Notes under the pieces: generated by a model
The model's input: the letters and a program-made list of their open reading frames with translations, nothing else
Databases searched by the model: none
Told to the model about the DNA's origin: nothing
Translations under genes and position numbers: made by a program
Shown here: piece by piece, positions 2,410 through 49,926 of the stretch
Position numbering within the stretch: the first letter of the stretch is position 1
Layout of the letters: every line of letters begins with the position of its first letter
Source: Deltaproteobacteria bacterium
GTDB taxonomy: Bacteria; Desulfobacterota; Binatia; UBA9968; JAJDTQ01
Length of the DNA stretch: 64,000 nt
Assembly: GCA_028818775.1 (NCBI GenBank)
Contig: JAPPNE010000052.1
Location: 66,697 to 130,696, forward strand
Reading direction: 5' to 3'

Positions 2410-4764
2410 GTGGGCGTCCTTCGACTTCGCTTCGCTACGCTCGGGACGAACGGTGTCAGGTTGACCATCCTGCCGATATCCTGCGCGTTCGTCCTGTGGT
2501 GCACCCTCCTCCCCGCCGCGCTCGCTCACGCCCAGTCCCCGGAAGCCGGAGAACGCATCGAGGTCTCGGCGGAAGAGTCCATCGAGGCGACCCGGGACAC
2601 GGTCCGTGCGCGCGGCAGCGTGGAGATCCGGCGGGGTGCGACGGTCTTCGGCGCCGACACGGTGGATCTCGACCATGCGCGGCGCACGCTGCGGGCGGAG
2701 GGATCGGTGCGCCTCGAGGATCCCCGTTACCGGATTCGGGCCGCCGAGCTGGAGATGAACCTCGACGACGAGACGGCCACGATACGCGACGCCGAGATGT
2801 TCATCGAGGAGGGGGGCATCCGTCTCGGCGGAAGCCGGGTAGAGAAATTCACGGGGCAGACCTACGAGATCCGCGACGGACGCTTCACCACGTGCCTGTG
2901 CGAGGAGGGCGCTTCGCCGTGGCGCATCGGCGCCGGCAGGTTCCGGTTGGAGGAGGGCGCGAAGGCGGTGGTGGATGAGGCCACCTTCTACGTCTACGAC
3001 GTCCCGGTACTGTACCTGCCCCATCTGTCGTTCCCCTATCTCACGGAGCGCACCACCGGGTTCCTGGTACCTTCCTTCGGCTGGTCCCGCCGCGACGGGT
3101 TCCTCTACCGGCAACCGTTCTTCTGGGCGCTGGACAAGAGCAACGACGCCACCTTCGACTTCGCCGTCGAGTCCAGGACGCGCATCGGCATGAGCGCGCA
3201 GTATCGCACCGTCCTGGATCGGAACACCGCCGGCCGGTTGGATCTCCTTTACTTCAGCGAGCGCATGCGCGGATCGACGCCCGCTCACGACACCGGTATC
3301 GCGGACCCGGCGATTCCTCCGGACCGCTGGAGCGCGCGCTGGACCCACCGTCATCGGCTTCCGGCCGGGTGGGCGACGTTCAGCGACATCGCCTTGTACA
3401 GCGACAGCGTCGCGCCGCGGGAGCTGGCGGAGTTCTTCGTCTCCGGCGCGGAAGAGGAAGATGTCCTGCGTTCGAGCCGGTACAGCGCGTCACGGCTCGG
3501 CTTTCGGTGGCACGGGACGGACATGGCGCTGACCGGGGGAGTGGACTACGTCCAGGACCTCGTCCAGCCGCGGGAGCACGCGCTGCACCGGGTCCCCCAC
3601 CTTTCCCTCACCGGCGGCCGCGGGCTCGGGTACGGTCTCGGCCTCGAGTGGGACGTGGGGTTGATCCACTACCTGCGCGAGCAGGGGTCGGACGGCTTGC
3701 GGGTGGACGTGCGGCCCGAGCTCACCTGGCGCGCGGCTCCGGTGCGCCACTTCCGCATGGACACCCGCGTGGCGTTGCGCGAGACCCTCTACCGGCTCGA
3801 TTCGATCGAACGCGGGTTCACCGCCGCGCGCCACGGCGACACCGGCCGCGTGGTCCGCAACGGTTCGCGCGAGCTGGTGGAATTCGGCTGGCGGCTGACC
3901 ACGGCGCTGAGCCGGACCTACGGCTGGAGTCTGGGTGGCTGGAACCGGGTCCGGCACGTGCTGGAGCCCGCGGTGGAGTACCTGTTCATTCCCGCCACCG
4001 ATCAGGACGAGCTGCCGATCTGGGATCCGGTGGACCGTATCCGGCGCCGCAACCTGCTGACGGTGGCATTGAACAACCGCTTCTGGGGCGCACTCGGGGG
4101 GAAGCGAGGGCCGGCTCCGGACGACGGCGGCTCCCGGGAACCCGACGGGGGCGCGTCCCCGCCGGCCGTCGCGCCCTTCGCTCGCGCCTCTGTCACGGCC
4201 AGTCTCGACATCGACAAGGCGCGCGCGGGTGAGGACGGTCTCGCGGACGTGGGCTTCGGCGTGCGACTGGATCCCGTCGAACGCCTGTACGCGTCCCTGG
4301 AAATGGGCATGGAACCCGGTCCGTGGAACCTCCGGCGGGCCGCCCTGGAGGTCTCGCTTTCCGACGTCGCGCCCGTGGAAACGAGTGTGCCCGACCGGGA
4401 TTTCCAGCGACCCAGCAGCGTGTCCTTGGGATACCGGTTCATTCGGGCGAATGTCCTGTCGCCCCTCGCGCGCCACGCCAATCTGGATCTTTTGGCGGAC
4501 TGCCCCTCGGACCCGCGATGCATGCCGCGGGATGCCTTGAACGGCTTCCACGCCGGCGCCGTACTGCGGGCGACGGACCGGGTGCTGCTGCTCTACGACG
4601 GCAACTACGACGGCGCCGCGGGCCGGTGGACGCAAAACGAGCTGGGGATCAAGTATCTCTCCGGGTGCCGGTGCTGGACCTTGACCCTGTCCTTGGAGCA
4701 ACGCAACAAACCGGACCGGACACGCGTCGGCTTCAAGTTCGCCTTTCTCGGCCTGGGAACCTGA
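2410..4764 (+). CDS. lptD: LPS-assembly protein LptD (OstA family outer-membrane beta-barrel)
   Basis: 784 aa with an N-terminal signal peptide (…LLPAALAHA|QSP). The OstA-like N-domain (RARGSVEIRRG…RAEGSVRLEDPRYRIRAAELEM) and a long C-terminal beta-barrel region with aromatic-rich strands are present. The exact start (GTG 2410 versus internal TTG) is uncertain. Confidence 0.75.
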   Translation: MGVLRLRFATLGTNGVRLTILPISCAFVLWCTLLPAALAHAQSPEAGERIEVSAEESIEATRDTVRARGSVEIRRGATVFGADTVDLDHARRTLRAEGSVRLEDPRYRIRAAELEMNLDDETATIRDAEMFIEEGGIRLGGSRVEKFTGQTYEIRDGRFTTCLCEEGASPWRIGAGRFRLEEGAKAVVDEATFYVYDVPVLYLPHLSFPYLTERTTGFLVPSFGWSRRDGFLYRQPFFWALDKSNDATFDFAVESRTRIGMSAQYRTVLDRNTAGRLDLLYFSERMRGSTPAHDTGIADPAIPPDRWSARWTHRHRLPAGWATFSDIALYSDSVAPRELAEFFVSGAEEEDVLRSSRYSASRLGFRWHGTDMALTGGVDYVQDLVQPREHALHRVPHLSLTGGRGLGYGLGLEWDVGLIHYLREQGSDGLRVDVRPELTWRAAPVRHFRMDTRVALRETLYRLDSIERGFTAARHGDTGRVVRNGSRELVEFGWRLTTALSRTYGWSLGGWNRVRHVLEPAVEYLFIPATDQDELPIWDPVDRIRRRNLLTVALNNRFWGALGGKRGPAPDDGGSREPDGGASPPAVAPFARASVTASLDIDKARAGEDGLADVGFGVRLDPVERLYASLEMGMEPGPWNLRRAALEVSLSDVAPVETSVPDRDFQRPSSVSLGYRFIRANVLSPLARHANLDLLADCPSDPRCMPRDALNGFHAGAVLRATDRVLLLYDGNYDGAAGRWTQNELGIKYLSGCRCWTLTLSLEQRNKPDRTRVGFKFAFLGLGT

Positions 4765-6916: not shown

Positions 6917-6943
6917 TCGTTCCCGCTTTCGCGGGAATGACGA
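6917..6943. repeat. Palindromic REP/MITE-like unit (CGTCGTTCCCGCTTTCGCGGGAATGACG) in the convergent gap between the secretin and rarA
   Basis: It is a near-perfect 27-bp palindrome. The same unit recurs at 17817-17842, 17893-17918 and 30739-30764. Confidence 0.8.
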
Positions 6944-10907: not shown

Positions 10908-11516
10908 CTATTCCTTCGGCGCCTCCGCGGTTTCCGCTTCGGGCGGGGTTTCCGCTTCGGCCGGAGTCTCCGTTTCGGTGGGGTTCTCCGCCGGAGCGAC
11001 GTCTTCCGCCTGGGTCGCGCTGTCCGCGGGGGCCACGGTCTCGGCTACGGTCGGGCTGTCCGCCGGGGTCACCTCTGCCGCTTCAGCCGTGCTCTCCGCC
11101 GGGGCTACGCTCTCCGTCGCGGCCGGACTCTCCGTTTCGGTCGAGCTATCCGCCGCCACGTCCTCCGCCGTCACGGCCACGTCTTCCGTCACCGCCGGGA
11201 TTTCGGCGACCGCCGCGCTTTCCGCCGCCTCCGCGCGCCCGGCTGCGGCCTCGGCAGTCTCCGCGACCGCGCCTGTTTCCTTGGCCGCCCGCTTTATGAG
11301 GTTTCGCACCGTCTGGGTCGGCTGCGCTCCCTTCCTGATCCAGTCACCGACCTTGGCCTGGTCCAGTTTCAGGGTGGCCGCCGGAGTCCGCGGGTCGTAG
11401 GTGCCCACCTGCTCGATGAATCTTCCGTCGCGCGGGTCGCGCGCGTCCGCCACCACGATGCGGTAGTAAGGCCGCTTCTTCGCGCCGTGCCGGCTGAGTC
11501 TGATCTTTACGCTCAT
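10908..11516 (-). CDS. rpsP: 30S ribosomal protein S16 with a ~120-aa Ala/Glu/Thr-rich C-terminal low-complexity extension
   Basis: [42 protein letters not shown] is canonical S16, with a GAGGA RBS 10 nt upstream of ATG 11516. The tail is ~120 aa of [21 protein letters not shown]…[23 protein letters not shown]. Confidence 0.85.
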
Positions 11517-11565
11517 ACGGTTTTCTTCCTCACGGTCCTTTCTGCAAACCAACCTTTTTAGTTCA

Positions 11566-13030: not shown

Positions 13031-13417
13031 TCATGGGTGCCTCCTTGACAAGGGGTAATGGCGAAAGGCTCCCGCGTTATCGAATTCAAGGACATGGTTG
13101 ACCATGGCGTCCATGGGGTTCCCCATGTCTTCGAGATACTCGATTGCCGCATGAAGAAGGGCGACGGAGCGTTGTCGGCCGACACAAGGCAAGACAATGA
13201 GTCCTGGGTGGATGTCTTCGGTTTGGATTAGTGTGCGAAAATCGCGTGCATTAGCCGTAACGATTACCAGTTCTTGAGCGATGCATCGTTCCAACACACG
13301 GTGGTCGGGCACTCCACGGCCACCGAAGTCCAAGGGGTGCTGAGCGACGTGTTTGCCGCTCTGATTCAAGATGCGGGCAAGCCGTGGCGACAGGCATTCG
13401 TCAATGAACAGGCGCAT
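13031..13417 (-). CDS. DUF5615-family PIN-like putative toxin
   Basis: MRLFIDECLSPRLARIL…LVIVTANARDF is the DUF5615 N-terminus. It lies immediately downstream of a DUF433 gene with an 18-bp gap. Confidence 0.6.
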   Translation of the reverse strand: MRLFIDECLSPRLARILNQSGKHVAQHPLDFGGRGVPDHRVLERCIAQELVIVTANARDFRTLIQTEDIHPGLIVLPCVGRQRSVALLHAAIEYLEDMGNPMDAMVNHVLEFDNAGAFRHYPLSRRHP

Positions 13418-13435
13418 GGAACGTGACGGCTTTCG

Positions 13436-14026
13436 TCACGGCACGTTGCGCCATGGACGTCCGCTCGGTCGGCCTCGCAGGGGATGTGCCCGAGCAAAGA
13501 TGGCCGCCGCTTCAAAAGCTTCGCGAGGGATATCGGGGTTGTCCGCCATGAGATCGTCGATGCTGTCACCGTCCTGCAAACGTCCCAGCACCGAGTAGAC
13601 GGTCATCCGCGTCCCCCGTATCACGGGGGTGCCGCCGAGGATGTCCGGATCGGACACGATGTGAGCGTCACGCGATTCCTTGTAGCGCAACGCCGTCTGG
13701 AAAGGTCCGCCCGCCAGTTCGTCCAAGTGCACGAAGGTCCCGGGCGAAAACTCGATTGCCGTGAGAGCCAGGGGCTCGAGGCGGGCGAGCTTGGCCCAAA
13801 GCGCCTTTTTGTGACGTATCGGGAGATCCACGAGGTTTGCTTGCTTTAACGCTGCAAAGTACGCTACCGCGGACAATGGCAGATAGCGTGTCGCACCTCC
13901 GCGCAAGCGTGCGGGACCGTTGAAGGTTTGGATAATGTCCGCCTCCACAGCCTTTTCCACGGTTGTTCTCGTGACGCCGGCCAGTTCAGCCGCTTCGCGA
14001 ATGGTGATATCAGGTGCTGCCGACAT
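13436..14026 (-). CDS. DUF433-domain protein with N-terminal HTH (putative antitoxin partner of DUF5615)
   Basis: The C-terminal DPDILGGTPVIRGTRMTVYSVLGRLQDGDSIDDLMADNPDIPREAFEAAAIFA is the DUF433 signature. An N-terminal HTH (ITIREAAELAGVTRTTVEKA) precedes it. Confidence 0.6.
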   Translation of the reverse strand: MSAAPDITIREAAELAGVTRTTVEKAVEADIIQTFNGPARLRGGATRYLPLSAVAYFAALKQANLVDLPIRHKKALWAKLARLEPLALTAIEFSPGTFVHLDELAGGPFQTALRYKESRDAHIVSDPDILGGTPVIRGTRMTVYSVLGRLQDGDSIDDLMADNPDIPREAFEAAAIFARAHPLRGRPSGRPWRNVP

Positions 14027-16415: not shown

Positions 16416-17342
16416 ATGAAACTCCTCAAACCGCCGCCCCTCAGGCCCGGTGACACCATCGGGGTCATCGCCCCGGCCGGAGCCGTGTACGGGGACCTCC
16501 TTGCCAAGGGCGTCCGCGCGTTGGAGGCGCGCGGATTCCGCGTGCTCCTCGCCGAGGGAATCCTCGCGCGCAAGGGCTACCTGGCCGGGAGCGAGCGGCA
16601 GCGCGCGGAAACGCTGGAACGCTTCTTCCTGCGGGACGACATCGCGGCCATCTTCTGCGCCCGCGGAGGGTTCGGTTCGATCCAGCTTCTTCCGGCTCTC
16701 GACGCCGGGCTCATTCGCACCCATCCGAAGATATTCGTCGGATTCAGCGACGTTACGGCCCTGCTCAACTGGATGTCGCAGAGCTGCGGGATCGTCGCCT
16801 TCCACGGGCCCATGGTTGCCGTCGAGTTCGCCGGGGAGCTCGAAGGCGGAGTCACCAGCGGGTTCTGGGACGCGCTCACCGGGAAGCGGCGGATCTGGCA
16901 GATCAAGGGCACCGGCGTGCTCCGCGGCGGCAACGGTCCGGCGCGGGGACCGTTGGCCGGCGGGTGCCTCTCGGTGCTGGTGACCACCCTGGGGACGCCT
17001 TACGAGATCGATACCGCGGGAAAGATCGTTTTCCTGGAGGACGTGGGCGAGCGCCCCTACCGTATCGAACGCATGCTGACTCACCTGCGCATGGCCGGGA
17101 AGCTCGACGGTGTCGCGGGCGTGGTGACCGGCGCTTTCAACGACTGCGAGACCGGCGCCGACCGGGACGTCACCGAAGTTCTCACCGAAGTCTTCGCCGG
17201 AGCCCCCTACCCGGTGGTGACGGGTCTGCCCTGCGGCCACGCCACCCCGAACACCCTGCTTCCCATCGGGCTCGACGCCGAGCTGGACGGCCGCAACGGC
17301 GTGCTGATGCTGGTGGAGCCGGCGACCCAGGCGGCGTGTTGA
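16416..17342 (+). CDS. ldcA: LD-carboxypeptidase (peptidase S66)
   Basis: From ATG 16416: MKLLKPPPLRPGDTIGVIAPAG…AIFCARGGFGSIQLL…FVGFSDVTALL is the S66 pattern. The table ORF (from 16299) over-extends at the 5' end. Confidence 0.75.
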   Translation: MKLLKPPPLRPGDTIGVIAPAGAVYGDLLAKGVRALEARGFRVLLAEGILARKGYLAGSERQRAETLERFFLRDDIAAIFCARGGFGSIQLLPALDAGLIRTHPKIFVGFSDVTALLNWMSQSCGIVAFHGPMVAVEFAGELEGGVTSGFWDALTGKRRIWQIKGTGVLRGGNGPARGPLAGGCLSVLVTTLGTPYEIDTAGKIVFLEDVGERPYRIERMLTHLRMAGKLDGVAGVVTGAFNDCETGADRDVTEVLTEVFAGAPYPVVTGLPCGHATPNTLLPIGLDAELDGRNGVLMLVEPATQAAC

Positions 17343-18637
17343 TGCCGGCGGCGCGCCACGTCCAGCCCGAGGACGGCGCGCGGGTCTGGCGCGCACTGGA
17401 CCAGACCGGCCGGCGCGGCGTGTCGGAGGGTGTTGCGCCCGGCATGGTCATCCTGGTAGGCAACAGCCGGGAAGTCCTCTTTCACCGCGCCTACGGCAGC
17501 CGGGCGCTGGTCCCCACTCGCCTCCCGATGCTGCCCGACACCGTGTTCGACGTAGCCTCCCTCACGAAACCCATCGCCGCCACCACCGCCATGATGCTGC
17601 TGGCGCGGGACGGAAGGGTGGGTCTCGACGACCCGGTGAGCGCCGTCGTTCCCGAATTCAGCGAAGGCCCCAAGTCCGCGGTAACGTTCCGCCAACTCCT
17701 GAACCACACCTCGGGCCTGCCGGCGTGGAAACCGTACTACGAGACCTCCATCCCACTCTCCGTCATTCCTGCGAAACAGGCCGTGTCAAAACTCGTGAGG
17801 CAGGGACCCTACGGATCGTCATTCCCGCGAAAGCGGGAATCCATGGGCGGTGGTGGGGCATTGCAGTGGCGTTTCCCCGCCTCGCCACCCCTGGATTCCC
17901 GCTTTCGCGGGAATGACGGAGAGGGTCGCGGCCGCATTTTTGCGCGAGTCCATGCGGAGCCGCTGGCGGCCGCCCCGGGGGAGCAGGTCTGTTACAGCGA
18001 CCTTGGGTTCATCCTCCTGGGAGAGGCCGTCGAGAGGCTCACCGGGAGACGGCTGGACCGGTTCTGCCACGAAGAAATCTTTACGGCCCTTGGGCTCTCG
18101 TCGACGTTCTTCGTGGACCTGAGCCCGTCTTCATGCGGGCCGCGGGCTGCTCTCGTCCATACCCTGGCCGCCACCGAAGACTGCCCCTGGCGCGGGAAGA
18201 TCCTCTGCGGCGAGGTCCACGACGACAACGCCTTTGCCATGGGCGGGGTGGCCGGCCACGCCGGACTGTTCTCGTCGGCGCCGGATATCCACCGTTTCCT
18301 GCGCTTTCTCGGACACTGCCGTGACGACGCCGAGCCGGACTTCCTGCCTAGCGCCATCGTGCGCAAGTTCCTTGAGGCGGAGCGACCCATCACCGGTCAG
18401 ACCCACGTGCTTGGCTGGGATACGCCTTCACCCGAGGGTTCATCCAGCGGCCGCCACTTTTCTCCCAAGACCGTCGGCCACCTCGGTTTCACCGGCACCT
18501 CCATCTGGTGGGACCTGGAGCGGGACGTGCACGTCGTCCTCCTCACCAACCGCGTGCACCCGTCGCGCGACAACGACGTCATCCGGGAGTTCCGTCCGCG
18601 CGTGCACGACGCGGCCATGGACGCGCTGTTTTCATGA
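17342..18637 (+). CDS. Serine hydrolase of the beta-lactamase/PBP (AmpH-like) family carrying an in-frame MITE insertion
   Basis: ATG 17342 overlaps the ldcA TGA (ATGA). The SxxK motif (DVASLTKPIAATTAMML), a downstream YSD and LGWDT…GHLGFTGTSIWWD are present. The segment 17761-17922 encodes the repeat-derived SVIPAKQAV…SSFPRKRESMGGGGALQWRFPASPPLDSRFRGNDGEG in frame. Confidence 0.7.
   Translation: MPAARHVQPEDGARVWRALDQTGRRGVSEGVAPGMVILVGNSREVLFHRAYGSRALVPTRLPMLPDTVFDVASLTKPIAATTAMMLLARDGRVGLDDPVSAVVPEFSEGPKSAVTFRQLLNHTSGLPAWKPYYETSIPLSVIPAKQAVSKLVRQGPYGSSFPRKRESMGGGGALQWRFPASPPLDSRFRGNDGEGRGRIFARVHAEPLAAAPGEQVCYSDLGFILLGEAVERLTGRRLDRFCHEEIFTALGLSSTFFVDLSPSSCGPRAALVHTLAATEDCPWRGKILCGEVHDDNAFAMGGVAGHAGLFSSAPDIHRFLRFLGHCRDDAEPDFLPSAIVRKFLEAERPITGQTHVLGWDTPSPEGSSSGRHFSPKTVGHLGFTGTSIWWDLERDVHVVLLTNRVHPSRDNDVIREFRPRVHDAAMDALFS
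17817..17918. mobile_element. ~102-bp palindromic MITE-like element within the serine hydrolase gene
   Basis: Two 26-bp termini in inverted orientation (17817-17842 and 17893-17918) flank a 50-bp G-rich core. A degenerate half-unit lies at 17761-17785. The inserted length, whether taken as 102 bp (17817-17918) or as 162 bp (17761-17922), is a multiple of three, so the host frame is kept. Confidence 0.75.
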
Positions 18638-20067
18638 TTCCCCGCCTGAGCCCCGGAGCGCACGTTCATTTCGTCGCCGTCTGCGGCGTCGGTACCGGTT
18701 CCCTGGCCGGCCTGCTGCACGAGCGGGGCTACCGCGTCACCGGCTCGGACGAGAACGTCTACCCGCCCATGAGCACGTTCCTGGCAGGCATCGGCATCGA
18801 CATCCTGCCCGGTTTCAGCGAGGCCCATGTCGCCCGGCGTCCCGACCTGGTGGTCATCGGCAACGCGGTGTCCCGGGGCAATCCCGAGGCGGAGGCGGTC
18901 CTGCGCCAGGGCATCCCCTACGTGTCCCTGCCCCAGGCCCTGGGCCGGTTCCTCGTCGACGGCAAGCGTTCGGTGGTGGTGGCCGGCACCCACGGCAAGA
19001 CCACCACCACTTCGTTGATGTCCTGGGTGCTGGTGGCCGCCGGGTTGGACCCGAGCTTCTTCATCGGCGGAATCCCGGTGAACTTCGCCAGCGGCTTCCG
19101 CTCCGGCGACGGGTCCTGGGTGGTGATGGAGGGCGACGAGTACGACAGCGCCTTCTTCGACAAGGGGCCCAAGTTCCTTCACTACCAGCCGGAACGGGTG
19201 ATCCTCACGAGCCTCGAGTTCGACCACGCGGACATCTACCGGGACCTCGATCACGTGAAGGAAGCCTTCCGCCGCCTGGTGGCGATCATCCCCGCGGGCG
19301 GCAGCCTGCTCGTGTGCGACGACGCCGTCCATGCCCGGGAACTCGTGCGCGACGCGGCCTGCCCGGTTCTCTCCTATGGGCTGAGCGGAGCCGCGGACTG
19401 GCAGGCGCGCGACGTCCGGACGGAACGGGGCCGCACGGTGTTCACGCCGTGCTACAAGGGCGATGCCGAAGGTCCGGTGGAGCTGCCCCTCATCGGGCGC
19501 CACAACGCCAAGAACGCGCTGGCGGTCTACGCCACGGCGCGCGAGATCGGCTTGAGCGCGTCCGGCATCCGCTCCGCCTTGGCGTCCTTCCAGGGGGTGC
19601 GGCGGCGGCAGGAGATCGCCGGCGAGGCGGCCGGGGTCCTGGTCATCGACGACTTCGCGCACCATCCCACCGCGGTGGCCGACACCATCGCCGCGGTGCG
19701 GGAGGCATGGCCGGGACGCCGGCTCTGGGCGGTGTTCGAACCCCGCAGCCAGACCAGCCGGCGCCGCGTTTTCCTGGAAGAGTTCGCGGAGGCGCTGGCC
19801 CGGGCCGACCGCGTCCTCCTGCCCGACCTCTACCATCCGGAGAAGATCCCGGAAGACCAGCGGCTCTCGCCCGCGGAACTCGTGGACGGCATCAACCGCC
19901 GCCACGGGGACGAAGCGGCCTCCTACCTGCCGGGCGTCGACGACATCGCGGCCGCGATGGTCCGCGATGCAACCGCGGGCGACGTCGTGCTGGTAATGTC
20001 CAACGGCGGCTTCGGGGGTCTTCCCGCGAAGGTCGTTGCGGGCTTGCGTGGGCGGGAATCCGGCTGA
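18634..20067 (+). CDS. mpl: UDP-N-acetylmuramate:L-alanyl-gamma-D-glutamyl-meso-diaminopimelate ligase
   Basis: ATG 18634 overlaps the upstream TGA (ATGA). VAVCGVGTGSLAGLL…VVAGTHGKTTTTSLM…DEYDSAFFDKGPKFLHY is the Mpl-specific Mur-ligase pattern. Translated length is 477 aa. Confidence 0.8.
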   Translation: MIPRLSPGAHVHFVAVCGVGTGSLAGLLHERGYRVTGSDENVYPPMSTFLAGIGIDILPGFSEAHVARRPDLVVIGNAVSRGNPEAEAVLRQGIPYVSLPQALGRFLVDGKRSVVVAGTHGKTTTTSLMSWVLVAAGLDPSFFIGGIPVNFASGFRSGDGSWVVMEGDEYDSAFFDKGPKFLHYQPERVILTSLEFDHADIYRDLDHVKEAFRRLVAIIPAGGSLLVCDDAVHARELVRDAACPVLSYGLSGAADWQARDVRTERGRTVFTPCYKGDAEGPVELPLIGRHNAKNALAVYATAREIGLSASGIRSALASFQGVRRRQEIAGEAAGVLVIDDFAHHPTAVADTIAAVREAWPGRRLWAVFEPRSQTSRRRVFLEEFAEALARADRVLLPDLYHPEKIPEDQRLSPAELVDGINRRHGDEAASYLPGVDDIAAAMVRDATAGDVVLVMSNGGFGGLPAKVVAGLRGRESG

Positions 20068-30674: not shown

Positions 30675-30738
30675 GACAGAGTTCGTCATTCCAGCGAACA
30701 GGCTGTACCAACACTCGTTGAGCACGGACCCCTCTTGA

Positions 30739-30812
30739 CGTCATTCCCGCGGAAGCGGGAATCCAGGGGTGGGGGTGGGGGGCGCCGCAGGGGTGGAAAG
30801 GGGCCGCCCTCG
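30739..30812. repeat. Half-copy of the palindromic repeat family plus an adjacent G-tract (G-quadruplex-prone) spacer
   Basis: CGTCATTCCCGCGGAAGCGGGAATCC (30739-30764) is followed by AGGGGTGGGGGTGGGGGGCGCCGCAGGGGTGGAAAGGGG. This mirrors the terminus plus G-rich core of the element at 17817-17918. Confidence 0.7.
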
Positions 30813-34287: not shown

Positions 34288-35001
34288 TTATGACAGCCAA
34301 ACATGCCACACAGAGATCGGTCCCGGCTTATGTGTGGGTGGCGACTGCATGCTGTAAACAAAACGCCTGCCATGTCGTGAACACGCCAGATCGGAAGAAC
34401 CAAGTCCCACAACGACCGGGAACTCTTCTACTAGATAACTCGAAGGATCTTGCGTTGCAGCCCTCGACAAAAACGGTGTCAGGTTGGCGCTGATCGACGA
34501 TCCATCACGAACGTAGCCGATCATAAATGCTTCGCGGCTGCCCCACGCATAGTCACCGTCCACAAAGCGACGAAGGCCATGTTCACAGTACAAGGCTTCC
34601 GTCTTTGAGGTGGCAGCATCCAGTATCTTGGCTTCCGTGACGAGTGGAAACCGTCGTGTCCTGTCGGACAGATAAATAGATAGGTCGGGACGTTTCTCAA
34701 GATGTAGACCATTGAAACTTAGACTCTCCTTCCCTCGTGCGACGCAAAGGACAAGGTTACCCCAGAAGGGGTCCTGTTCGATCAGCCGATTGAGGCGCGC
34801 CTCCATCAAGGCAGTTACCTCCGGCTCGTTACCCGAGGCCACTGTAGCCGGCTTCTGTGTCCGGATATCATTGAAAGCCCGAAGCAACCCCTCCGCAATG
34901 ATTTCGAGGTGCACCTTCGCGATCTCCGGCAGTGGAAGCCGAAGGCCGCGAGTCAATTCGGCGATTTGATCCGGTCGCGGGCGAATTGCTGAGCCCTTCA
35001 T
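34288..35001 (-). CDS. Putative PD-(D/E)xK-fold restriction endonuclease, translationally coupled to the upstream methyltransferase
   Basis: From ATG 35001 (237 aa), ATGA-overlapping the methyltransferase stop. KRPDLSIYLSDRTRRFPLVTEAKIL has PD…x14…EAK spacing typical of PD-(D/E)xK motifs II/III, with acidic residues upstream (GKESLSF). Confidence 0.45.
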   Translation of the reverse strand: MKGSAIRPRPDQIAELTRGLRLPLPEIAKVHLEIIAEGLLRAFNDIRTQKPATVASGNEPEVTALMEARLNRLIEQDPFWGNLVLCVARGKESLSFNGLHLEKRPDLSIYLSDRTRRFPLVTEAKILDAATSKTEALYCEHGLRRFVDGDYAWGSREAFMIGYVRDGSSISANLTPFLSRAATQDPSSYLVEEFPVVVGLGSSDLACSRHGRRFVYSMQSPPTHKPGPISVWHVWLS

Positions 35002-38000
35002 TTGGTAGCAGGCCCTTTCAGCAGATCGACGTGTGACCAGATAATGCGCTGGGCAAGCAACCGGGCCTGCGTCTCGCTCCAATAACGGCGTTGAGCGAGC
35101 CGCCCGATCAGAAGTCCATCGGTTCCGTCGCGAACGAGGACCTCAGACGCCGCCGCTTCGTCAGCTGCTCTAATCAACCCTTCCCAATCGCTTGCTTTTG
35201 CTGCTTCCCCTTCCCCGCGAAACGTTGTCCGTACATCGATGCCTTGCCACGGCGATATCTCCGGAGAAGGAATCTGGCGCACGGTCAGCGTCAAGCCGAA
35301 CCGTTCGCACCAGGGTGTCAATTCTCTTGTGAGAATCTCGCAAAACCGCTTTTTTTCGTCCGGAGAGGGGACAGCCTGGGCGTTCCGTTGGTTTGTGGCA
35401 AAAGGCAGATTGAATTCCAGTGTATCGGCAATGACCTGCATGTCGCGCGGACCAAGGCCATACAAGCGCATCACCCATTCATCCACGTCGTGCCAGGATA
35501 CTGCCCCCGAATTCAGGCCGTCGGTCAAATTCGCGATCTCAACAAGCTGGTATGGTTGGAGTTTGTGAAAATTCGGCAAGGGAATACGATCCAGCGTTGC
35601 CTTCTCTATCACTTCTCGCTCGAAACCGAACTCGCCGCTCGTGACAAGTGCCAGCCAAGTGACCAGTTTGCTTCCCAGAACGAGTGCGAGATAGCGAACT
35701 AGCATGCTGGCATCAGGATGCTGGCACGGACTGTATCCGTAGAACGTCTCGTTGAAAACGATACCCTCTTCAGAGATCGCCACACCAATGCGCCCTGTCG
35801 TTGCAGGTGGGGATTTGTGTACGACGACTAGTGGTCCAGCGAACAAATCTGGTGATCGGGGATCGTGAATGCGATCAAGCGAAAAAGCATTGAGAATTTC
35901 GCTATCGACGAAGATGCTCGCGAGGGATGCGACCGTAATTTCCGGCCGCTCCCAAAGGTAGCTCGCATCGACACCGGGCCGACCGTCGCCTCCCTGCCGC
36001 ACCCGACTGCTCGGTCTAAGCGCTTGGTACCCGTTGCCGCTACCTCGCAACTGGCCTCCCTCCGTGACACCGATCGTCTCGCGCCAGAACGCGCCCAGTG
36101 TTGGGAATCCCGACGCGCGAATCCGTTCGACGATCGCGAAATCGGCTTTCGTTCCGCGGAACAGTATTTTCAAGATATCGGGTGTCTCGATAAGCTGGCG
36201 GGAAGGAACGACTTCGGCATTCAGCGCATCGATGCGCATGCTGCCAGCGCCATTCAGGGAACCTTCTATCCGGGGAGTGACAAAACGAAAACCGCCCCCA
36301 GTACCTGGTGTTCGGTTGGCAGCGAGCAGGATACAAAAAGGAGCCGAAACTTGAGGCCAGACCTTCGTTTGCCTCAGTTCCACTCCATTGATGATCGATG
36401 TGACGTCAAGCGCTTCAAAGAGAGCTTGGCGCGCTTCCGGCATCCCGTCACCCTGTTGGAAGAGCAAACGGGCATGGAGTGCGAAGGCGATCTGTCCGTT
36501 TGGCTTCGCCCATTCCATTGCGCGCCACACAAACGGCAGATCGAGCCCTTCGTTCGGCAAGGGTGGCGATGCGTTTGTGACCTTCCTGTCCGCCGCGATG
36601 CGAGCCACCGTTTGACGTACAAGGTCCCAATCCGGCAACTTCGTGCCGCTTGCCCAAGGCGGATTGCCTATGACGAGGTCATACTGTCCGACATGCTCGG
36701 CTCCGACGAAAGGCCCTAGGCTTCCGAGTCCCGCACTTTCCTCTTCGGCCGTTACCCTGTGCAGCACGGTTCCGCGTAGATTGTCGAACCGTAACTTGTC
36801 GACCGGTCTGGGATTGGGATCCAGCTCGATTGACGCGAGATACAGGCCTAGTGCCGCAAACCGGAGTGCGGCTTCGTTGGTGTCAAGACCCACGATCTGG
36901 TTAGAGAGGATTCGCCTGAGCGCATTGGTGTCGGGCCGCTGTTTGTCGGCTCTCCAATGCTCCGCGATCAATTCGCGAAACGCTGTCAGCAAGAAAATGC
37001 CGCCACCTGCCGCTGGATCGAGAATCTTAGCGGTTTTGCCTACTCCTTCTCTACCCAGCGCGCGGAAGGACGCCCGGACCATCAGATCCGCGATCAGTCT
37101 GGGTGTATAATAACCTCCTTCGCGCCTTTGCCGACGTGGCGCGTGGTTTCTCAAATAGAGTTCATATGCCTGACTCAGAACCCCGACCGGAATATGTGCG
37201 AAGTCAAGGTTGTCCCACTTCTGCTCCCAGCCAAGAAACAACTGGCTATCCGGTGCCCGCCGAAGCACGTCTCCCAACGCACGATAGGCGCCATCAGGTA
37301 AGGTCGTGAAGATATTTTCCGAGAGAGGTAGCAGGTCACCGTTGAACGTCTCATCAAGCCAATTCGATGTGACTTCGGCCAACTCGCGGGTGTCGAAGAG
37401 ACTAGCGGCACTGGAAAAGCCGTCCGGCAGCAGGTTCCGATCCGCAAGGAACCTCGTAAAGAGTGCGCGGCCAACGAGCGAGACCGCGTCTCCGTCCGAG
37501 ACTGCATATCGCTCGATCATCTCGGTTGTGGAACCGGTGAGCAAGTTGAGGACAACGCCGGAAATCCAATCGCGTTGCCTGCTGGCCGATTGCGGACGAA
37601 TGTTGCCGAGTCGGGCCAACGCCACGGACCTCGCACTGTCCCCCAACTGCCAAGCCACACGGGCTTGCCGTAGTGACTTCTTGTCCAGAGCAATGCGGTA
37701 GACACTAAGGTGTCCGGGGGCGACTACACCAAGATAGGGAGCGTCTCCGCGCATGGCGAGTAGACGCCGTACGCGATGGAGTTGCTCGTCGTCTTCCAGG
37801 GAATCCGAGTCGACCAAGAAAATCAGGGGCGTGCCCTGCCATTCGTAGACGGCCTCCACCACACCCAGCGGGGTGTTTCCACTACGGCGGGCCGTCAGCA
37901 GTGTGGCGTAAGGAAGGAGTTCCGGACCGTCTCCATCGAGCAGACGCAAAGATGTTGGATCAGCGCCAAAGTCGATGAGCGAAGAAGCTACGTCGGCCAT

Positions 38001-38009
38001 CGGTCTCAC
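34998..38009 (-). CDS. Eco57I-family (gamma-class) N6-adenine DNA methyltransferase, 1003 aa, with large N- and C-terminal extra domains (Type IIG/IIS-like or PglX-like)
   Basis: In order: motif X-like GYYTPRLIADLMV, motif I DPAAGGGIFLLTAF, motif IV VIGNPPW. This is flanked by a ~280-aa N-region and a ~550-aa C-region (probable target recognition). GC is ~55-58% against ~69% in the flanks. Confidence 0.75.
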   Translation of the reverse strand: MRPMADVASSLIDFGADPTSLRLLDGDGPELLPYATLLTARRSGNTPLGVVEAVYEWQGTPLIFLVDSDSLEDDEQLHRVRRLLAMRGDAPYLGVVAPGHLSVYRIALDKKSLRQARVAWQLGDSARSVALARLGNIRPQSASRQRDWISGVVLNLLTGSTTEMIERYAVSDGDAVSLVGRALFTRFLADRNLLPDGFSSAASLFDTRELAEVTSNWLDETFNGDLLPLSENIFTTLPDGAYRALGDVLRRAPDSQLFLGWEQKWDNLDFAHIPVGVLSQAYELYLRNHAPRRQRREGGYYTPRLIADLMVRASFRALGREGVGKTAKILDPAAGGGIFLLTAFRELIAEHWRADKQRPDTNALRRILSNQIVGLDTNEAALRFAALGLYLASIELDPNPRPVDKLRFDNLRGTVLHRVTAEEESAGLGSLGPFVGAEHVGQYDLVIGNPPWASGTKLPDWDLVRQTVARIAADRKVTNASPPLPNEGLDLPFVWRAMEWAKPNGQIAFALHARLLFQQGDGMPEARQALFEALDVTSIINGVELRQTKVWPQVSAPFCILLAANRTPGTGGGFRFVTPRIEGSLNGAGSMRIDALNAEVVPSRQLIETPDILKILFRGTKADFAIVERIRASGFPTLGAFWRETIGVTEGGQLRGSGNGYQALRPSSRVRQGGDGRPGVDASYLWERPEITVASLASIFVDSEILNAFSLDRIHDPRSPDLFAGPLVVVHKSPPATTGRIGVAISEEGIVFNETFYGYSPCQHPDASMLVRYLALVLGSKLVTWLALVTSGEFGFEREVIEKATLDRIPLPNFHKLQPYQLVEIANLTDGLNSGAVSWHDVDEWVMRLYGLGPRDMQVIADTLEFNLPFATNQRNAQAVPSPDEKKRFCEILTRELTPWCERFGLTLTVRQIPSPEISPWQGIDVRTTFRGEGEAAKASDWEGLIRAADEAAASEVLVRDGTDGLLIGRLAQRRYWSETQARLLAQRIIWSHVDLLKGPATK

Positions 38010-45954: not shown

Positions 45955-48900
45955 TCATGCCTGCTCGTTACGTCGAGCAGCCGTAGATAGCCTTCGGAAC
46001 GCTGGGCAATCAGCCAAGCCGGGCGCTAATGTCTTGACCCGGTCAAGAGCGTTGCTCAAGTCGTATGGCACGATCGCGTCCTGCTCTTCTCCAATGGTCA
46101 AATCCAGCAACGTAAGGAGTGCGGCGGCCTTTCGTTCATCGTTGACCGCCAACTGTAGCTTCGAGACGGCTTCACTTCCAGTTCCAACCTCGCCATAGAG
46201 CCCATACTCTAGTGTTGACCAGCAATCAAAGGGGACAAGGAAACGCTTCATCTCATCAACGGCTTCGGCAAAAGCCTCGCCCGAGGCGGCGGGGATATGG
46301 GACAACTCTCGGCTTGTGTCGCGTGTCGTCAAGTCGCTTTCTTGTGGCCACACGCTCCGAAAGAACGGCTTGACGGCTACATGAAACAGCTTTTCAACGG
46401 ATCGTATTTCTCCTTCTTGCGGTGGCCCTTCTTCCTGGAAGTACCGGATAGCGCAGGCTGCAAACAGACGCGTTTCGTCGTCTGCTGATCGGAGCATTTG
46501 TGACACGCGGGGTTCGGCCACCAAGGGCCTACGTTCGTCTCGGAACGCCGTCAACACTTCGATGACAAGGCAAGAAACAAGCGATTCCCGGGCTTCTCGA
46601 CCGAGGCGATGGTCAGTTGCCCTTTCAATCACCTTGTCACCGATGATTTCAAGTAGAGGCTTGCCGCTTCGACGTGCGGCCTTGCGCCAAAGTGCAATGG
46701 ATTGGAAGTCATCCGCCAACAACGGGTCCACCAGATATTGTTTCGTCCAGTCAGGGTCTGCGTTCTGGAAGAATGGCAAACGTTCCGCTAGTCGGCAGTG
46801 TGCCACTAGGCCGCTATGGTCGGAGGCGCTGATGATTCGATCTCGCATCTGCCGCGCAGGGCTGCCGTCGGAGAAGGGGCGGGCATCTTTGCCGACGGCT
46901 TGGCAGGCGGCCAGGAAGACTTCAATGAATTGTCCCGCTGGTGTGTTGAGAGTGTCGATATCCAGGGACTCTTGCTGGTCACCCGAAGAGTTGGTCAGGA
47001 TATGGTCCCGGTCGTTAGCGACGGCATTGGTCCTTTCGACTGCAATAGGCCAAGCTTGCAGCCAGACGGGCAAGCCGTGTTCTGATCGGATGACATATCG
47101 ACTCCAACTGAAGAGCCAGTGGCTGATACCCCAGATGGCTTCCGTAAGGTTCGTCTCCGACAGGTTCCTCAGCAGATACAGGATACGGTTTGCCTCATCT
47201 TGTGGCTGGGGTGGTGGTTCAAGACTCGGCGTCGGGGGAGATGGCGAATGAAGCGAAAGGAAACAATCCCAAAGGCGCGGAAACTCCTCCCCGGCCCTAG
47301 TGAATGATTCCAAGTCCGAGAGAAGGAGCACGGCACTACCGGCCCGTTGGAGCCAAGCTTTGGCGGAGTTGTCGATCCAATGAACTCCATCGTGTGACAG
47401 TTCCTCGTTCAGTGCCCGAAGGCGGGCCTCTCCTTCAAGCAGGTCATATGGAGTGTCGGCCGAGAGCCGCGGAACGGGATGCGCCTGTGCATCGAAAAAC
47501 CCGCCATCCACGCGCATGTCTTCGAGTTGGGGAAGTTCCTTGATTCGTTTGAGCAACCATCGGCGGGTTTTTGGCGCTATGATGCCGCCGGCGACTTCCA
47601 CTCGTTTGACTTCACGTGCGGCACAGTACCGTCTGCGAGTTTTGAGTTTGTGCGGCGGACCCTTGCACAAACGCTGGACAATCGTTTCCTGAACGTCCCG
47701 CCGAAGTTCCTTAACGCGTCTTGCCCTCAGTTCGGTGATCTCGGGGAATTCATCCAGACCCCAAAGCTCGTAGTCAGATAGTGTCACCAGGAAGTCACCG
47801 ACATCGTCAGCGCTTACCAACTGTGGATCCCGGGCGATTGCGGCCCATAGGCGCCGGTGGACGCCAGACCGCGACAACTGCCAGCCTGGGAAGAAGGGCG
47901 TGGCGGCCTGCTGATCGAGTTCGGAAATGCGGATGACAATTTCGTGAAGCAACTTGACCGACGGCGCGATTCCATCATTAAAGAGATCGGGCTCACCGCC
48001 CTCATGGCCGAATGCTTCTTCGACGTCTCTACCCTTCCCGTGGGGACGAACGAAATACACACGGTGAGGACTTTCCCAAGGCACCTCACGGCCTTCATCA
48101 GTCTTGTAGATCCGATTGATGACGTTGAGCCCGTATTGGACTGAAGATGCCAGCCCGTCTGCCAGTTCCTTCAGGAATTGTATTTCTGAAACCGTGCCTA
48201 TGTGGAGGTCGCCGTAGTCGTTCAGATTACCCAGGTTGACGCTCGTCAGGTTCGCCGACAGAAGGTCTTCAAAGATCTTTGGGTGTCGAGGCCTTTCCTC
48301 AATCGCTTTGACCTCCAGACGAGGCGCGAACAGATCCACAATCGCTGAAATCAGGGCGCCGGAACGCTCGCCTTTGCCGAGTCGATCACGGATCGTTACA
48401 AATGCCATCGCCGGATGGTCCCTGATCGGGCGATTAGACCAGCTTTCCTCGATCAAGCGCCATGCAGTCGCATAGGGTTCCTTCAACTCAGGACTGCCGT
48501 AATCGTTCAGTAGCTCGTCTATTGCGATCCGTTTGGTACTCCAGTTGGATTCTTTGAGCGCCCAATCGATCGTGGCTGGCTCAGCAAGCCGGTTCTTCAG
48601 AAACGTGGTCATGACTTGGGCGTGATGGCGGTCGGTCTCGCTCAACCCCGCCCATGAATGAATGGCGGTGGCTGGTCCGAACTTTTTTCCGGGCGTGGTC
48701 TCAATGATGGAATCCAGCCATCCGGGCTCGGCCTTCGCACCCGACGCCACACCTGCCAAGCGAATGCGTTCATTCGCATGCCCTCGCCTGAACAGGTGGT
48801 CGAACAGGTCACGATCAGCCTTGGGGGTGGCGGCTCTGCTCTCCCGTACGATCCGTCTTACCTCAACATCGACGGTTTTCGTCTTTCCGTTGATTGCGGA

Positions 48901-49896
48901 GAGTTTGGCCCACCGTTCAAGCGCATCGCGCAGCACGGAATGGTCTCCATTTCGAGCATCGTAGTGGATCGGGGTGATGCCCCGTGCCTTCCAGTCTTGC
49001 AATTCCACGGGGTCCCCAGAGCCAACGAAGGTAAACCGTTCTTTCAAATCGCTGAATCGGGCTCCGTCGGCGGCGACGGCGTTCAGCAGGTAGCGCATCG
49101 GCGGATCGTTGGCGCTATAGCCCGCCAGGACGAGATGGAAGAGGCGTGCGGCGTCGTAGATGAGATCAGGGACAATCCTCCGACGCAGATAGTATTCCCC
49201 GAGGTCCTGGTCCGACAACACGAGATCCGAGAAGCGAGCCGGATTCCGGTCCAAGGCTCCGTGAATATGGAGCACTCCAGCGAACTCCTTGCGCGTCGTG
49301 GGTCTCGGGATCGATCCCAACGCATAGGTTTGCACTGGGGAACCAAGGCGCTTGGCAGCGGCTTCGAGCAAGAGGTCAAAGTTGGTGGTCATGATCGTCG
49401 TGACGCCGCCGCGGTCGGCTAGGCGCATGAGCGCCCGATGTATTGGCGCCGGTTTGTCGCTTGCTTGGCGCAGCAGTTCCGCTACGGTGCTTCTGACCTT
49501 GCTCGTGATCTTGTTCTTTTCATGAGTTTGATCGTCCAGCCGGCGTTCAAGCATTCCCAAGACCACGTCGTACTCGCCGGCAACGAACCGCTTGACCTCT
49601 GCCTTTTGGTTATTCCTGAGCTTCGACCAACCCGGTTCTGTAGTGTCAAGTGCGCGGTTAGGAGTCTTCGGAAGGATTTCGTAGACGCTTGCATCAAGCC
49701 TTTCATAGACGTCGCGTACCAGTTCTCGGAAGTCAGGCAGCCCCGCAGGACGTGAGATACCCGCACCGCAGATGAAGAGTACTTCGCCCCGCGCATGTGC
49801 CAGAAGCAAGCGTTCCGGAATCTCCGGGAGGCCTGGGCTGAGCGAAACGGCGCGGTAAGCGTCGTCACCGTGATCGGAATGAGGTAAATTGCTCAT
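45955..49896 (-). CDS. Large (1313 aa) SIR2_2-domain protein, defence-associated sirtuin (DSR)-like
   Basis: The N-terminal ~330 aa carry SIR2_2/DHS-like motifs (LFICGAGISRPAGLPDF; VTTIMTTNFDLLLE; VLHIHGAL). These are followed by ~1000 aa with no recognised catalytic motif (helical/repeat-like). GC is ~57%. Confidence 0.65.
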   Translation of the reverse strand: MSNLPHSDHGDDAYRAVSLSPGLPEIPERLLLAHARGEVLFICGAGISRPAGLPDFRELVRDVYERLDASVYEILPKTPNRALDTTEPGWSKLRNNQKAEVKRFVAGEYDVVLGMLERRLDDQTHEKNKITSKVRSTVAELLRQASDKPAPIHRALMRLADRGGVTTIMTTNFDLLLEAAAKRLGSPVQTYALGSIPRPTTRKEFAGVLHIHGALDRNPARFSDLVLSDQDLGEYYLRRRIVPDLIYDAARLFHLVLAGYSANDPPMRYLLNAVAADGARFSDLKERFTFVGSGDPVELQDWKARGITPIHYDARNGDHSVLRDALERWAKLSAINGKTKTVDVEVRRIVRESRAATPKADRDLFDHLFRRGHANERIRLAGVASGAKAEPGWLDSIIETTPGKKFGPATAIHSWAGLSETDRHHAQVMTTFLKNRLAEPATIDWALKESNWSTKRIAIDELLNDYGSPELKEPYATAWRLIEESWSNRPIRDHPAMAFVTIRDRLGKGERSGALISAIVDLFAPRLEVKAIEERPRHPKIFEDLLSANLTSVNLGNLNDYGDLHIGTVSEIQFLKELADGLASSVQYGLNVINRIYKTDEGREVPWESPHRVYFVRPHGKGRDVEEAFGHEGGEPDLFNDGIAPSVKLLHEIVIRISELDQQAATPFFPGWQLSRSGVHRRLWAAIARDPQLVSADDVGDFLVTLSDYELWGLDEFPEITELRARRVKELRRDVQETIVQRLCKGPPHKLKTRRRYCAAREVKRVEVAGGIIAPKTRRWLLKRIKELPQLEDMRVDGGFFDAQAHPVPRLSADTPYDLLEGEARLRALNEELSHDGVHWIDNSAKAWLQRAGSAVLLLSDLESFTRAGEEFPRLWDCFLSLHSPSPPTPSLEPPPQPQDEANRILYLLRNLSETNLTEAIWGISHWLFSWSRYVIRSEHGLPVWLQAWPIAVERTNAVANDRDHILTNSSGDQQESLDIDTLNTPAGQFIEVFLAACQAVGKDARPFSDGSPARQMRDRIISASDHSGLVAHCRLAERLPFFQNADPDWTKQYLVDPLLADDFQSIALWRKAARRSGKPLLEIIGDKVIERATDHRLGREARESLVSCLVIEVLTAFRDERRPLVAEPRVSQMLRSADDETRLFAACAIRYFQEEGPPQEGEIRSVEKLFHVAVKPFFRSVWPQESDLTTRDTSRELSHIPAASGEAFAEAVDEMKRFLVPFDCWSTLEYGLYGEVGTGSEAVSKLQLAVNDERKAAALLTLLDLTIGEEQDAIVPYDLSNALDRVKTLAPGLADCPAFRRLSTAARRNEQA

Positions 49897-49926
49897 GACG
49901 GTTCAAGTGTAGCAGAGTAACCGCCC

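Follow-up and report, generated by a model that had tools for sequence, protein, structure and literature searches.

The hydrolase gene and its operon

We analyzed a 64,000-nucleotide (nt) stretch of contig JAPPNE010000052.1 (assembly GCA_028818775.1, positions 66,697 to 130,696), referred to here as the window, in which a gene for a beta-lactamase-family serine hydrolase carries a cluster of palindromic repeats. The gene (17342..18637, + strand) codes for a 431 amino acid (aa) protein of the R61/EstB-like type that matches PF00144 (E 7.6e-58). Upstream in the same operon is ldcA (16416..17342, + strand), encoding an LD-carboxypeptidase of peptidase family S66 (PF02016 and PF17676), and downstream is mpl (18634..20067, + strand), a Mur ligase family gene with three Mur ligase Pfam domains. 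The hydrolase overlaps both neighbors, its ATG with the ldcA TGA at 17342 and its TGA with the mpl ATG (ATGA, 18634-18637), in agreement with an earlier note on this DNA, which had described a peptidoglycan-recycling operon with a coupled downstream mpl.

Fetched genomic loci are given L numbers and protein homologues P numbers, P0002 being encoded at L001. The order ldcA-hydrolase-mpl is conserved in L001, L004, L126-L129, L131, and L132. Common to every fetched locus are ffh, groEL, and groES on one strand with the three operon genes on the other.

The SxxK, Y-x-N/D, and H/K-x-G motifs of class C and R61-type enzymes are present in the window hydrolase as S73-L-T-K76, Y218-S-D220, and H380-L-G382. 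They are invariant or nearly so in an alignment of 119 homologues, and the same sequences show no variation at the catalytic and structural residues. The fold resembles the family VIII esterases, the class C beta-lactamases, and the R61 DD-peptidase (Foldseek matches to EstCE1, EstG, EstB, R61, and ADC-7; E 1e-19 to 1e-14). The first two motifs bracket the repeat cluster, which is where the earlier note had placed its insert.

Anatomy of the repeat cluster

A repeat search found two inverted arms of 34 nt, 94% complementary, at 17817-17850 and 17885-17918, each with the palindrome ATTCCCGCGAAAGCGGGAAT. They contain two complete copies of a short unit, which we assign below to the repetitive extragenic palindromic (REP) sequences. 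The left unit (17817..17843, + strand) consists of CGTC, ATTCCCGC, GAAA, GCGGGAAT, and CCA, is an exact copy of the family 27-mer, and is read as SFPRKRES. The right unit (17892..17918, - strand) is the exact 27-nt reverse complement of the left one and is read as LDSRFRGND. As the CGTC ends of both units point outward, the pair is a head-to-head (HH) dimer. The element of about 102 bp with perfect inverted termini reported earlier is thus present, though the perfect stretch is 27 rather than 26 nt. Between the units is a 48-nt spacer (17844..17891, + strand), rich in G toward the left unit and in C toward the right one, and its complementary ends complete a long hairpin.

A third, degenerate CGTC-type unit, CGTCATTCCTGCGAAACAGGCCGTGTC, lies upstream of the dimer (17761..17787, + strand) and is read as VIPAKQAV. 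Positions 17765-17784 are 70% identical to the 20-mer core, and the 20-mer is found in three copies starting at 17765, 17821, and 17895. This unit corresponds to the adjacent degenerate half-unit of the earlier note. It is joined to the dimer by a linker (…AAAACTCGTGAGGCAGGGACCCTACGGAT; 17788..17816, + strand) that is 62-73% identical to intergenic and orthologous copies. Further out, 17756-17776 and 17903-17923 are inverted repeats of each other. The degenerate unit is likely the remnant of the oldest unit, its loop having been invaded by the rest of the cluster. Folded as RNA, 17746-17935 forms a single long hairpin (-109 kcal/mol, z = -7.3), and the consensus fold of 12 dimers also supports a long hairpin.

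A DNA alignment of the window, L001, and L004 delimited the extra sequence. The loop DNA is 252 nt in the window and 63 nt in L001, the closest orthologue. The segment missing from L001 and P0002 (17747..17935, + strand; 189 nt or 63 codons, with boundaries approximate to a few nt) includes the REP cluster and part of the native loop. All three possible insert lengths, the 102 and 162 nt proposed before and the 189 nt relative to the insert-free orthologue, are multiples of three. The accompanying statement that three frames are free of stops did not hold. Over 17746-17940 only the frame of the gene is open, with one stop in each of the other two forward frames. The 102-bp dimer alone is open in two of three frames and ends as GFPLSRE* in the third, as a result of a TGA in one frame of the inverted unit. 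The unit itself, CGTCATTCCCGCGAAAGCGGGAATCCA, is open in five of six frames (RHSRESGNP, VIPAKAGI, SFPRKRES, WIPAFAGMT, and DSRFRGND), the sixth being GFPLSRE*.

Assignment to the CGTC-1 REPs

CGTC-tagged REPs have a terminal CGTC, a stem of 8-9 bp that opens with A/T pairs, a loop of 4-5 nt, and a CCA tail (Di Nocera 2013, PMC3733652). Their CGTC-1 family, with an 8-bp stem and a 4-nt loop, has been equated with Neisseria dRS3 and Rickettsia RPE-6, and HH dimers with the tag outside are the predominant arrangement, mostly homodimers with units 20-100 bp apart (PMC3733652). In the window a CGTC head is found on both full units (17817-17820 and the reverse complement of 17915-17918) and on the degenerate unit (17761-17764). 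The stem, ATTCCCGC paired with GCGGGAAT, is 8 bp and starts with an A-T followed by a T-A pair, matching CGTC-1. The loop is 4 nt, GAAA in the window dimer and GGAA in L004, L108, and a further window copy at 30.7 kb. Both units close with a CCA tail (CCATGGG and CCAGGGG). The dimer itself has identical units, a 48-nt spacer, and tags outside, as published for CGTC-1 HH dimers. Since the window unit matches every published criterion, it can be identified as CGTC-1. Judged by its sequence, the element is a CGTC-1 REP head-to-head dimer with a REPIN-like long hairpin (REPIN, REP doublet forming a hairpin) beside what appears to be the remnant of a third unit. HH is also the most frequent arrangement among the copies we fetched (51 of 70 adjacent pairs, with six of the opposite inverted type and 13 in tandem).

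The 24-nt core has four matches in the window at three loci, compared with 0.00 expected from shuffles. Outside the hydrolase gene, a single intergenic unit with two mismatches (6919..6942, - strand; core match 6918-6941) lies 7 nt past the stop of a secretin gene. The second is an intergenic composite (30683..30765, + strand; core 30740-30763) in which a unit variant, a linker, and a full unit with a GGAA loop follow one another with no inverted partner. Both are just past stop codons between convergent genes. The usual REP site is likewise just downstream of genes, between convergent open reading frames (ORFs), while intragenic CGTC and GTAG REPs, and dimers coding for 20-30 aa, are on record (PMC3733652).

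We scanned one genome per species for the exact 27-mer, CGTCATTCCCGCGRAAGCGGGAATCCA. It was found in at least 120 genome stretches (loci L006-L125) from many phyla. The matches listed include the Alpha-, Beta-, Gamma-, and Deltaproteobacteria, Dehalococcoidia/Chloroflexota, Binatia, Nitrospirota (Nitrospirae), Gemmatimonadota (Gemmatimonadetes), Terriglobia, Poribacteria, Latescibacterota, Hydrogenedentota, Phycisphaerae, and candidate-phyla-radiation genomes (Peribacteria and Wolfebacteria). Host phyla among these matches far exceed the five given for CGTC REPs in 2013, with perfect identity of the 27-mer across them. A screen for intragenic units based on GC content at third codon positions (GC3) was crude, flagging 11 of 241 while missing the window's own gene, and is not relied on.

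One non-orthologous HH dimer, at L075:4199-4302, comes from another sponge metagenome-assembled genome (Deltaproteobacteria bacterium RHO3_bin_65). The left half of its spacer, GGGGTGGTGGTGGGGCAT…, is close to that of the window, TGGGCGGTGGTGGGGCAT…, although identity over the whole spacer is only 0.70, where composition alone gives 0.56-0.67. The resemblance is a hint that sponge-associated genomes share a dimer subfamily.

Mobile elements and RNA families

The earlier note had called the element a miniature inverted-repeat transposable element (MITE). Its perfect 27-nt terminal inverted repeats and its size of 102 bp fit that label, while the absence of a target-site duplication does not. 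No direct duplication was found at either candidate boundary. The dimer is flanked by ...ACGGAT/CGTC and GACG/GAGAGG, and a 168-nt version by ATCCCA/CTCTCC and GGAGAG/GGTCGC, in neither case with a direct repeat. We rejected a classic MITE derived from an insertion sequence (IS) on the lack of a target-site duplication and the fit of the units to the CGTC-1 REP definition. The term is only loosely right for this element.

Pfam scans of about 45 window genes found no transposase, and no Y1 transposase or REP-associated tyrosine transposase (RAYT) was found within the window. All-against-all clustering of ORFs around 120 REP-bearing loci gave no recurrent transposase-like neighbor, only housekeeping families such as sensor kinases, ABC transporters, and dehydrogenases. 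No association of CGTC REPs with a transposase has been reported in the literature (PMC3733652). A RAYT-type REPIN was also considered. Two REPs in an inverted hairpin fit this type; the CGTC tag, where REPINs have GTAG, and the window scans, which found no RAYT, do not. A scan for intrinsic terminators found nothing at the element, and the sole Rfam match was to a sub-threshold miRNA model (E 0.31) that we treated as chance.

We also considered whether HH dimers in general sit in extended palindromic targets. Flank complementarity averages 0.33-0.45 with a bimodal distribution, being strong in L004, L019, L037, L054, and L075. The idea was rejected as a general rule, as it is suggestive only in a subset. 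In L004 (9/10), L126, and L127 the flanks just outside the CGTC ends repeat each other over 5-6 nt in inverted and not in direct orientation (CCGAGT…ACTCGG, TCACTC…GAGTGA). The palindrome at these three loci extends into locus-specific sequence, for which template switching and a palindromic target are both possibilities.

Distribution among orthologues

The 119 aligned homologues split sharply into 57 closer sequences (the ingroup) and 62 more distant ones of at most 60% identity (the outgroup). The ingroup represents Candidatus Binatia (L108, L113, and the JAJDXX assembly common to L061 and L126). In the outgroup the loop from WKPYYE to the helix before YSD is 24-27 aa long, and none of the 62 proteins has a repeat-derived peptide in it. 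The ingroup loop ranges from 6 to 112 aa and in most cases starts with S-V-I-P. An exact unit peptide is present in 20 of the 57 ingroup proteins, as against none of the 62. The ingroup uses frames +1, +2, +3, -1, and -3 of the unit and never -2, the frame with the stop.

At the DNA level, an HH dimer with a 46-48-nt spacer is found in the hydrolase loop of the window, L004, L126, L127, L129, and L108, and a single unit in that of L128. Orthologues with as little as about 65-75% identity have the composite at this site. We found no other units within 10 kb on either side of the insert-bearing orthologous loci. Because the dimers share one site and the surroundings are free of units, coincident random insertion is not credible. 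The syntenic outgroup Binatia locus L131 has no REP-like sequence in its loop DNA or in 5 kb of flank on either side.

These comparisons contradict a recent one-off insertion, as REP-derived sequence is inherited at the same loop across a Binatia subclade while the outgroup keeps a native loop of about 27 aa. The earlier note had named conserved native sequence, shared by orthologues, as what would count against a repeat-derived insert. Orthologues do share the site, but what they carry there is variable, repeat-derived, and read in different frames. A neighbor-joining (NJ) tree built on the core protein has REP motifs in each of the two ingroup subclades, with short loops interspersed. The distribution is consistent with a single ancient gain of a unit at this loop. 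The sister of the window protein is P0002 (L001), 92% identical and from a sister sponge sample, which is without the 189 nt of cluster and native loop. On the NJ tree this absence reads as a secondary in-frame deletion.

Remodelling of the loop

The loop has been rearranged repeatedly. Nesting is clearest in L129, where the loop of an outer unit is interrupted (CGTCATTCCCG / … / GCGGGAATCCAG). The inner segment has inverted linkers (GGTGTGTCAAAAC…) enclosing an HH dimer, and both halves of the outer unit survive. By comparison, the degenerate unit and linker of the window appear to be the left half of an L129-type layout whose right half was lost. The composite of unit variant, linker, and unit is also found in L004, in L129, and in the window at 30683-30765, with identities of 62-73%. 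We infer the order of the nesting events.

Smaller inserts split the unit loop in P0021, P0040, P0046, and P0049 (for example VIPAK-LVPDPDRG-AGIQ and VIPAK-SLPRTRYG-AGIQ), and the dimer-in-unit case of L129 lies at L129:3216-4592 (loop region). Such splits suggest the unit loop as an insertion target.

Half-units have also expanded. Directly after the right REP unit, L126 (L126:10001-11365) and L108 (minus strand, about 3284-4639) have 18-nt tandem arrays of the half-unit GCGGGAATGACGGAGAG, which translate as up to about seven RGNDGE-like repeats. The spacer has turned over as well. The window spacer is 88% identical to that of L004 as a reverse complement and 65% identical in the same orientation (shuffles averaged 56% and did not exceed 67%), meaning the segment between the inverted units was flipped in one lineage. 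Apart from this flipped pair, spacer identities among deeper orthologues are 0.56-0.75, close to what composition alone gives (shuffles average 0.56 and reach 0.67), and speak neither for nor against common descent.

Another repeat family (…PLPLGEGGRRPGEG…) fills the hydrolase loop in some orthologues. In P0023, P0028, P0034, P0041, and P0045 the loop holds a second, unrelated family (…NPTPLPLGEGGRRPGEG…PHPDPLPEGEG…). P0045 (676 aa) has several copies of it and a further repeat insertion near WDTPSP.

Conservation of the units

In contrast to the remodelled loop, the units hardly vary. The two units of the window show no differences in 54 positions from those of L126, L127, and L129, and two in 54 from those of L004 and L108. 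Over the same comparisons the proportion of differing synonymous sites (pS) in the flanking gene is 0.30-0.46, from which 16-25 unit differences are expected (binomial P 1e-8 to 1e-15). Depending on the orthologue, the left unit encodes SFPRKRES, VIPAKAGI, or RHSRESGNP. As units read in differing frames are near-invariant, the conservation is not acting on the protein. The sole variant is an A-to-G change in the loop, found in both arms together in L004 and L108. The pattern indicates upkeep of the units at the level of nucleic acid and not of protein. Arm-to-arm correction within the palindrome, homogenization or re-insertion at the level of the family, and selection on the hairpin are candidates for how this may occur.

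The enzyme with its insert

The earlier note had suggested checking the halves of the gene on either side of the insert for selection. For the window gene against seven orthologues, the ratio of nonsynonymous to synonymous substitution (dN/dS) is 0.11-0.36 in both halves, with values of 0.11-0.19 against L001 and 0.13-0.36 against the other orthologues, which indicates purifying selection on each side. An AlphaFold model of the protein has a predicted template modelling score (pTM) of 0.81. Residues 146-191 have a predicted local distance difference test score (pLDDT) below 50 and no secondary structure, while the flanks are above 90. The structural check that had been proposed gives an unstructured modelled insert between confident flanks; low pLDDT alone does not prove a surface loop.

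The note had left two readings of the gene, a tolerated in-frame loop insertion and a protein inactivated while still being translated. The invariant catalytic residues, the dN/dS of 0.11-0.36, and the unstructured modelled insert favor the first, and purifying selection in insert-bearing lineages contradicts the second. Taken together they point to an enzyme that would stay functional with its insert, the protein tolerating it. In the summary given in PMC2229807, the one enzyme tested, a Rickettsia Gmk with a Rickettsia palindromic element (RPE), is still active, with altered substrate affinity.

Weighing the explanations

We consider it probable that the insert is an intragenic CGTC-1 REP cluster, inherited and remodelled across a Candidatus Binatia subclade while the gene stayed functional. 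The identity of the units, their in-frame reading, the clade-wide presence, the outgroup absence, purifying selection, unit conservation, and the spacer flip are what we take as established for this reading. A unit would have entered the loop-coding segment after WKPYYE in the ancestor of the subclade. Vertical inheritance would then have been accompanied by nested insertion into the unit loop, tandem duplication of half-units (the GNDGE repeats), spacer inversion, and in-frame deletions, one of which removed the cluster altogether in the closest relative. Selection on the hydrolase and the translationally coupled mpl would purge frameshifts and the stop-containing unit frame. The versions that persist, in frame and free of stops, would give the protein about 55-63 disordered residues that project from its surface at the rim of the all-alpha lobe.

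Several points weigh against this reading. The sequenced orthologues were picked for recognizable REP peptides and L108 came from the exact-match scan, so the unit conservation is subject to ascertainment, and units are decayed or absent in P0013, P0014/15, and P0052-57. The single gain relies on a quick NJ tree and protein motifs, and a similar pattern would arise if units had re-inserted repeatedly at this specific site, for instance in the loop of a unit already there, as the nesting in L129 may indicate. On the enzyme, low pLDDT is proof neither of disorder nor of surface exposure in the model. A BLASTP alignment to the E. coli AmpC sequence puts the insertion point just after GLPLQ(120) and before the helix to Y150. 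By this alignment the loop may be a turn at the active-site rim with a possible effect on substrate binding, which we offer only as a lead.

A more speculative extension, which we hold as a minority view, is that resident units are themselves targets of the machinery that spreads or homogenizes the family (a "REP nest"), with repeated loop insertion, arm correction, and spacer flips at one place. Less likely still is that the dimer is kept as a nucleic-acid element of the operon, either as an mRNA hairpin affecting stability, processing, or ribosome transit or as a DNA site for a protein, with the peptide loop a by-product. That would suit units far more conserved than synonymous sites in any reading frame and a hairpin as stable as -109 kcal/mol (z = -7.3). 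It would suit the flipped spacers of the window and L004 too, since 88% identity is above what a pS of 0.30-0.40 leads one to expect, and the paired A-to-G and T-to-C change, which preserves the long hairpin; REPs moreover sit mostly in transcribed places (PMC3733652). Yet many lineages, the closest relative included, keep an otherwise intact operon in which the element is decayed or gone, and there is neither a terminator signature nor an Rfam family. Perfect conservation is a property of the family across phyla and does not require a local function, and arm-to-arm correction accounts for the paired change without selection.

The remaining explanations fare worse than inheritance and remodelling of a REP cluster. 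Recent transposition of a MITE, leaving a crippled or inactive enzyme translated only for the expression of downstream mpl, draws on terminal repeats that are perfect over 27 nt, a closest relative without the insert, and the translational coupling of the genes. It is largely refuted by the same-site composite in orthologues down to about 65-75% identity, and with invariant catalytic motifs, a dN/dS of 0.11-0.36 in both halves that also holds between insert-bearing lineages, no target-site duplication, and no transposase among some 45 window genes, we regard it as very improbable. Slightly less credible again is selection for the inserted peptide as a flexible lid, linker, or interaction segment. 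Most of the ingroup does have a long loop at the site, and the site is near the active-site rim by the alignment to AmpC. Against this, one DNA sequence is read in five frames with no conserved amino acid sequence, loop length runs from 6 to 112 aa with some loops filled by an unrelated repeat family, and no structure is modelled in the insert. An assembly artefact, with a repeat collapsed into the gene of a metagenome-assembled genome, is next to negligible. The exact window protein does come from a scaffold of a sponge metagenome (ROBB21-1_SAMN13943215), and repeats are well known to cause misassembly. Nevertheless, the protein occurs on two contig records, its reading frame is intact, and equivalent inserts are present in many independent assemblies, including complete or multi-Mb ones (the 4.3-Mb ctg21626c and the 5.68-Mb OZ253480.1).

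Other features of the window

Between ffh and groEL, at 13031-14026 (- strand), the window has a DUF433 and PIN-like (DUF5615) gene pair of lower GC3, probably a toxin-antitoxin module, which is not in that spacer in L001, L004, or L126. Ribosomal protein S16 (10908-11552, - strand) has an acidic C-terminal tail of about 120 aa rich in Ala, Glu, Thr, and Pro. The tail consists partly of 18-nt tandem repeats (10929-11070), and S16 in L127, L128, and L132 has the usual 87-91 aa. Two segments of low GC (0.57-0.62), at 34998-38009 and 45955-57562, form a defence-like island. It encodes an N6-methylase/Eco57I-type fusion (1002 aa), a 1312-aa SIR2-domain protein, an N6/N4 DNA methylase, an AAA (AbiEii-like) ATPase, and a ResIII helicase-like protein. 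In the spacer between the SIR2-domain gene and the methylase gene, at 49927-49971, 22 nt are perfectly duplicated in tandem (GTCAGCATGGCGGCAAGATGAG x2).

Relation to known repeats and significance

The cluster is like the CGTC-1 REPs already described (PMC3733652) in the anatomy of its unit, HH homodimers, spacers with complementary ends, the minority of copies that are intragenic and in frame, and the lack of a known dedicated transposase. It differs in its host, Candidatus Binatia (here a sponge symbiont), which, like most of the phyla with matches in the scan, is outside the five listed in 2013. It differs also in being a nested cluster of about 160-190 nt that persists and turns over at one codon-level site throughout a clade. 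Rickettsia RPEs (Ogata et al. 2000) are similar as palindromic repeats in frame in conserved protein genes, translated and tolerated with the host gene retained. RPE-1-type elements, by contrast, are specific to Rickettsia and 105-146 bp long, while the window element is built from the 27-nt CGTC-1 unit. The window organism, a free-living or sponge-associated bacterium, has a GC-rich genome with one such gene in 64 kb. The link to RPE-6 comes from Di Nocera 2013 (PMC3733652) and not from Rickettsia sequence.

Neisserial intergenic mosaic elements (NIMEs) have 20-bp dRS3 units (ATTCCCN8GGGAAT) flanking RS segments of 50-150 bp (Bentley 2007, PMC1797815). The dRS3 pattern is matched at 17821-17840 and 17895-17914, with starts 74 nt apart, and in a degenerate copy at 17765. 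The window and the neisserial repeats (Parkhill 2000; PMC1797815) have in common the exact 20-mer, RS-like separators of about 50 nt, and a copy number that is dynamic between relatives. NIMEs are intergenic, neisserial, and often in long arrays, whereas the window has a three-unit cluster in a coding sequence of an unrelated phylum. Neisseria dRS3 units are targets of site-specific integration (PMC1797815); we saw no recombinase or phage associated with the window cluster.

Like REPINs (Bertels & Rainey 2011; Nunvar 2010), the dimer has two inverted REPs, a short spacer, and one hairpin, and probably belongs to a dispersed multi-copy family. REPINs have been described for GTAG-type REPs, however, and no RAYT is known for CGTC REPs or was found in the window. 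The Correia/NEMIS, ERIC, and RUP MITEs are also about 100 bp with terminal inverted repeats and a long RNA stem-loop, some having open frames fused in genes. The window element differs from them in lacking a target-site duplication or TA termini, in having complete REP units as its terminal repeats, and in having no known parent IS with matching ends.

The existence of such an insert is not new, as Rickettsia RPEs are in-frame palindromic repeats and intragenic CGTC REPs were catalogued in 2013. Its contribution is a single codon-level site that can be traced over dozens of Candidatus Binatia genomes through gain, nesting, half-unit expansion, inversion, and in-frame loss. With units near-invariant across five frames, selection or homogenization at the DNA or RNA level is separated unusually cleanly from selection on the protein. 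If resident units are indeed targeted by the family's own machinery, the locus would be a NIME-type array inside a coding sequence that varies the length of an enzyme loop while its units stay perfect. It would then provide a phylogenetically ordered record of CGTC-REP activity and a route to the mobilizing or homogenizing enzyme. The locus is well suited to studying how CGTC REPs are maintained and moved, and how much loop variation the active-site-proximal region of a class-C-type hydrolase can absorb.

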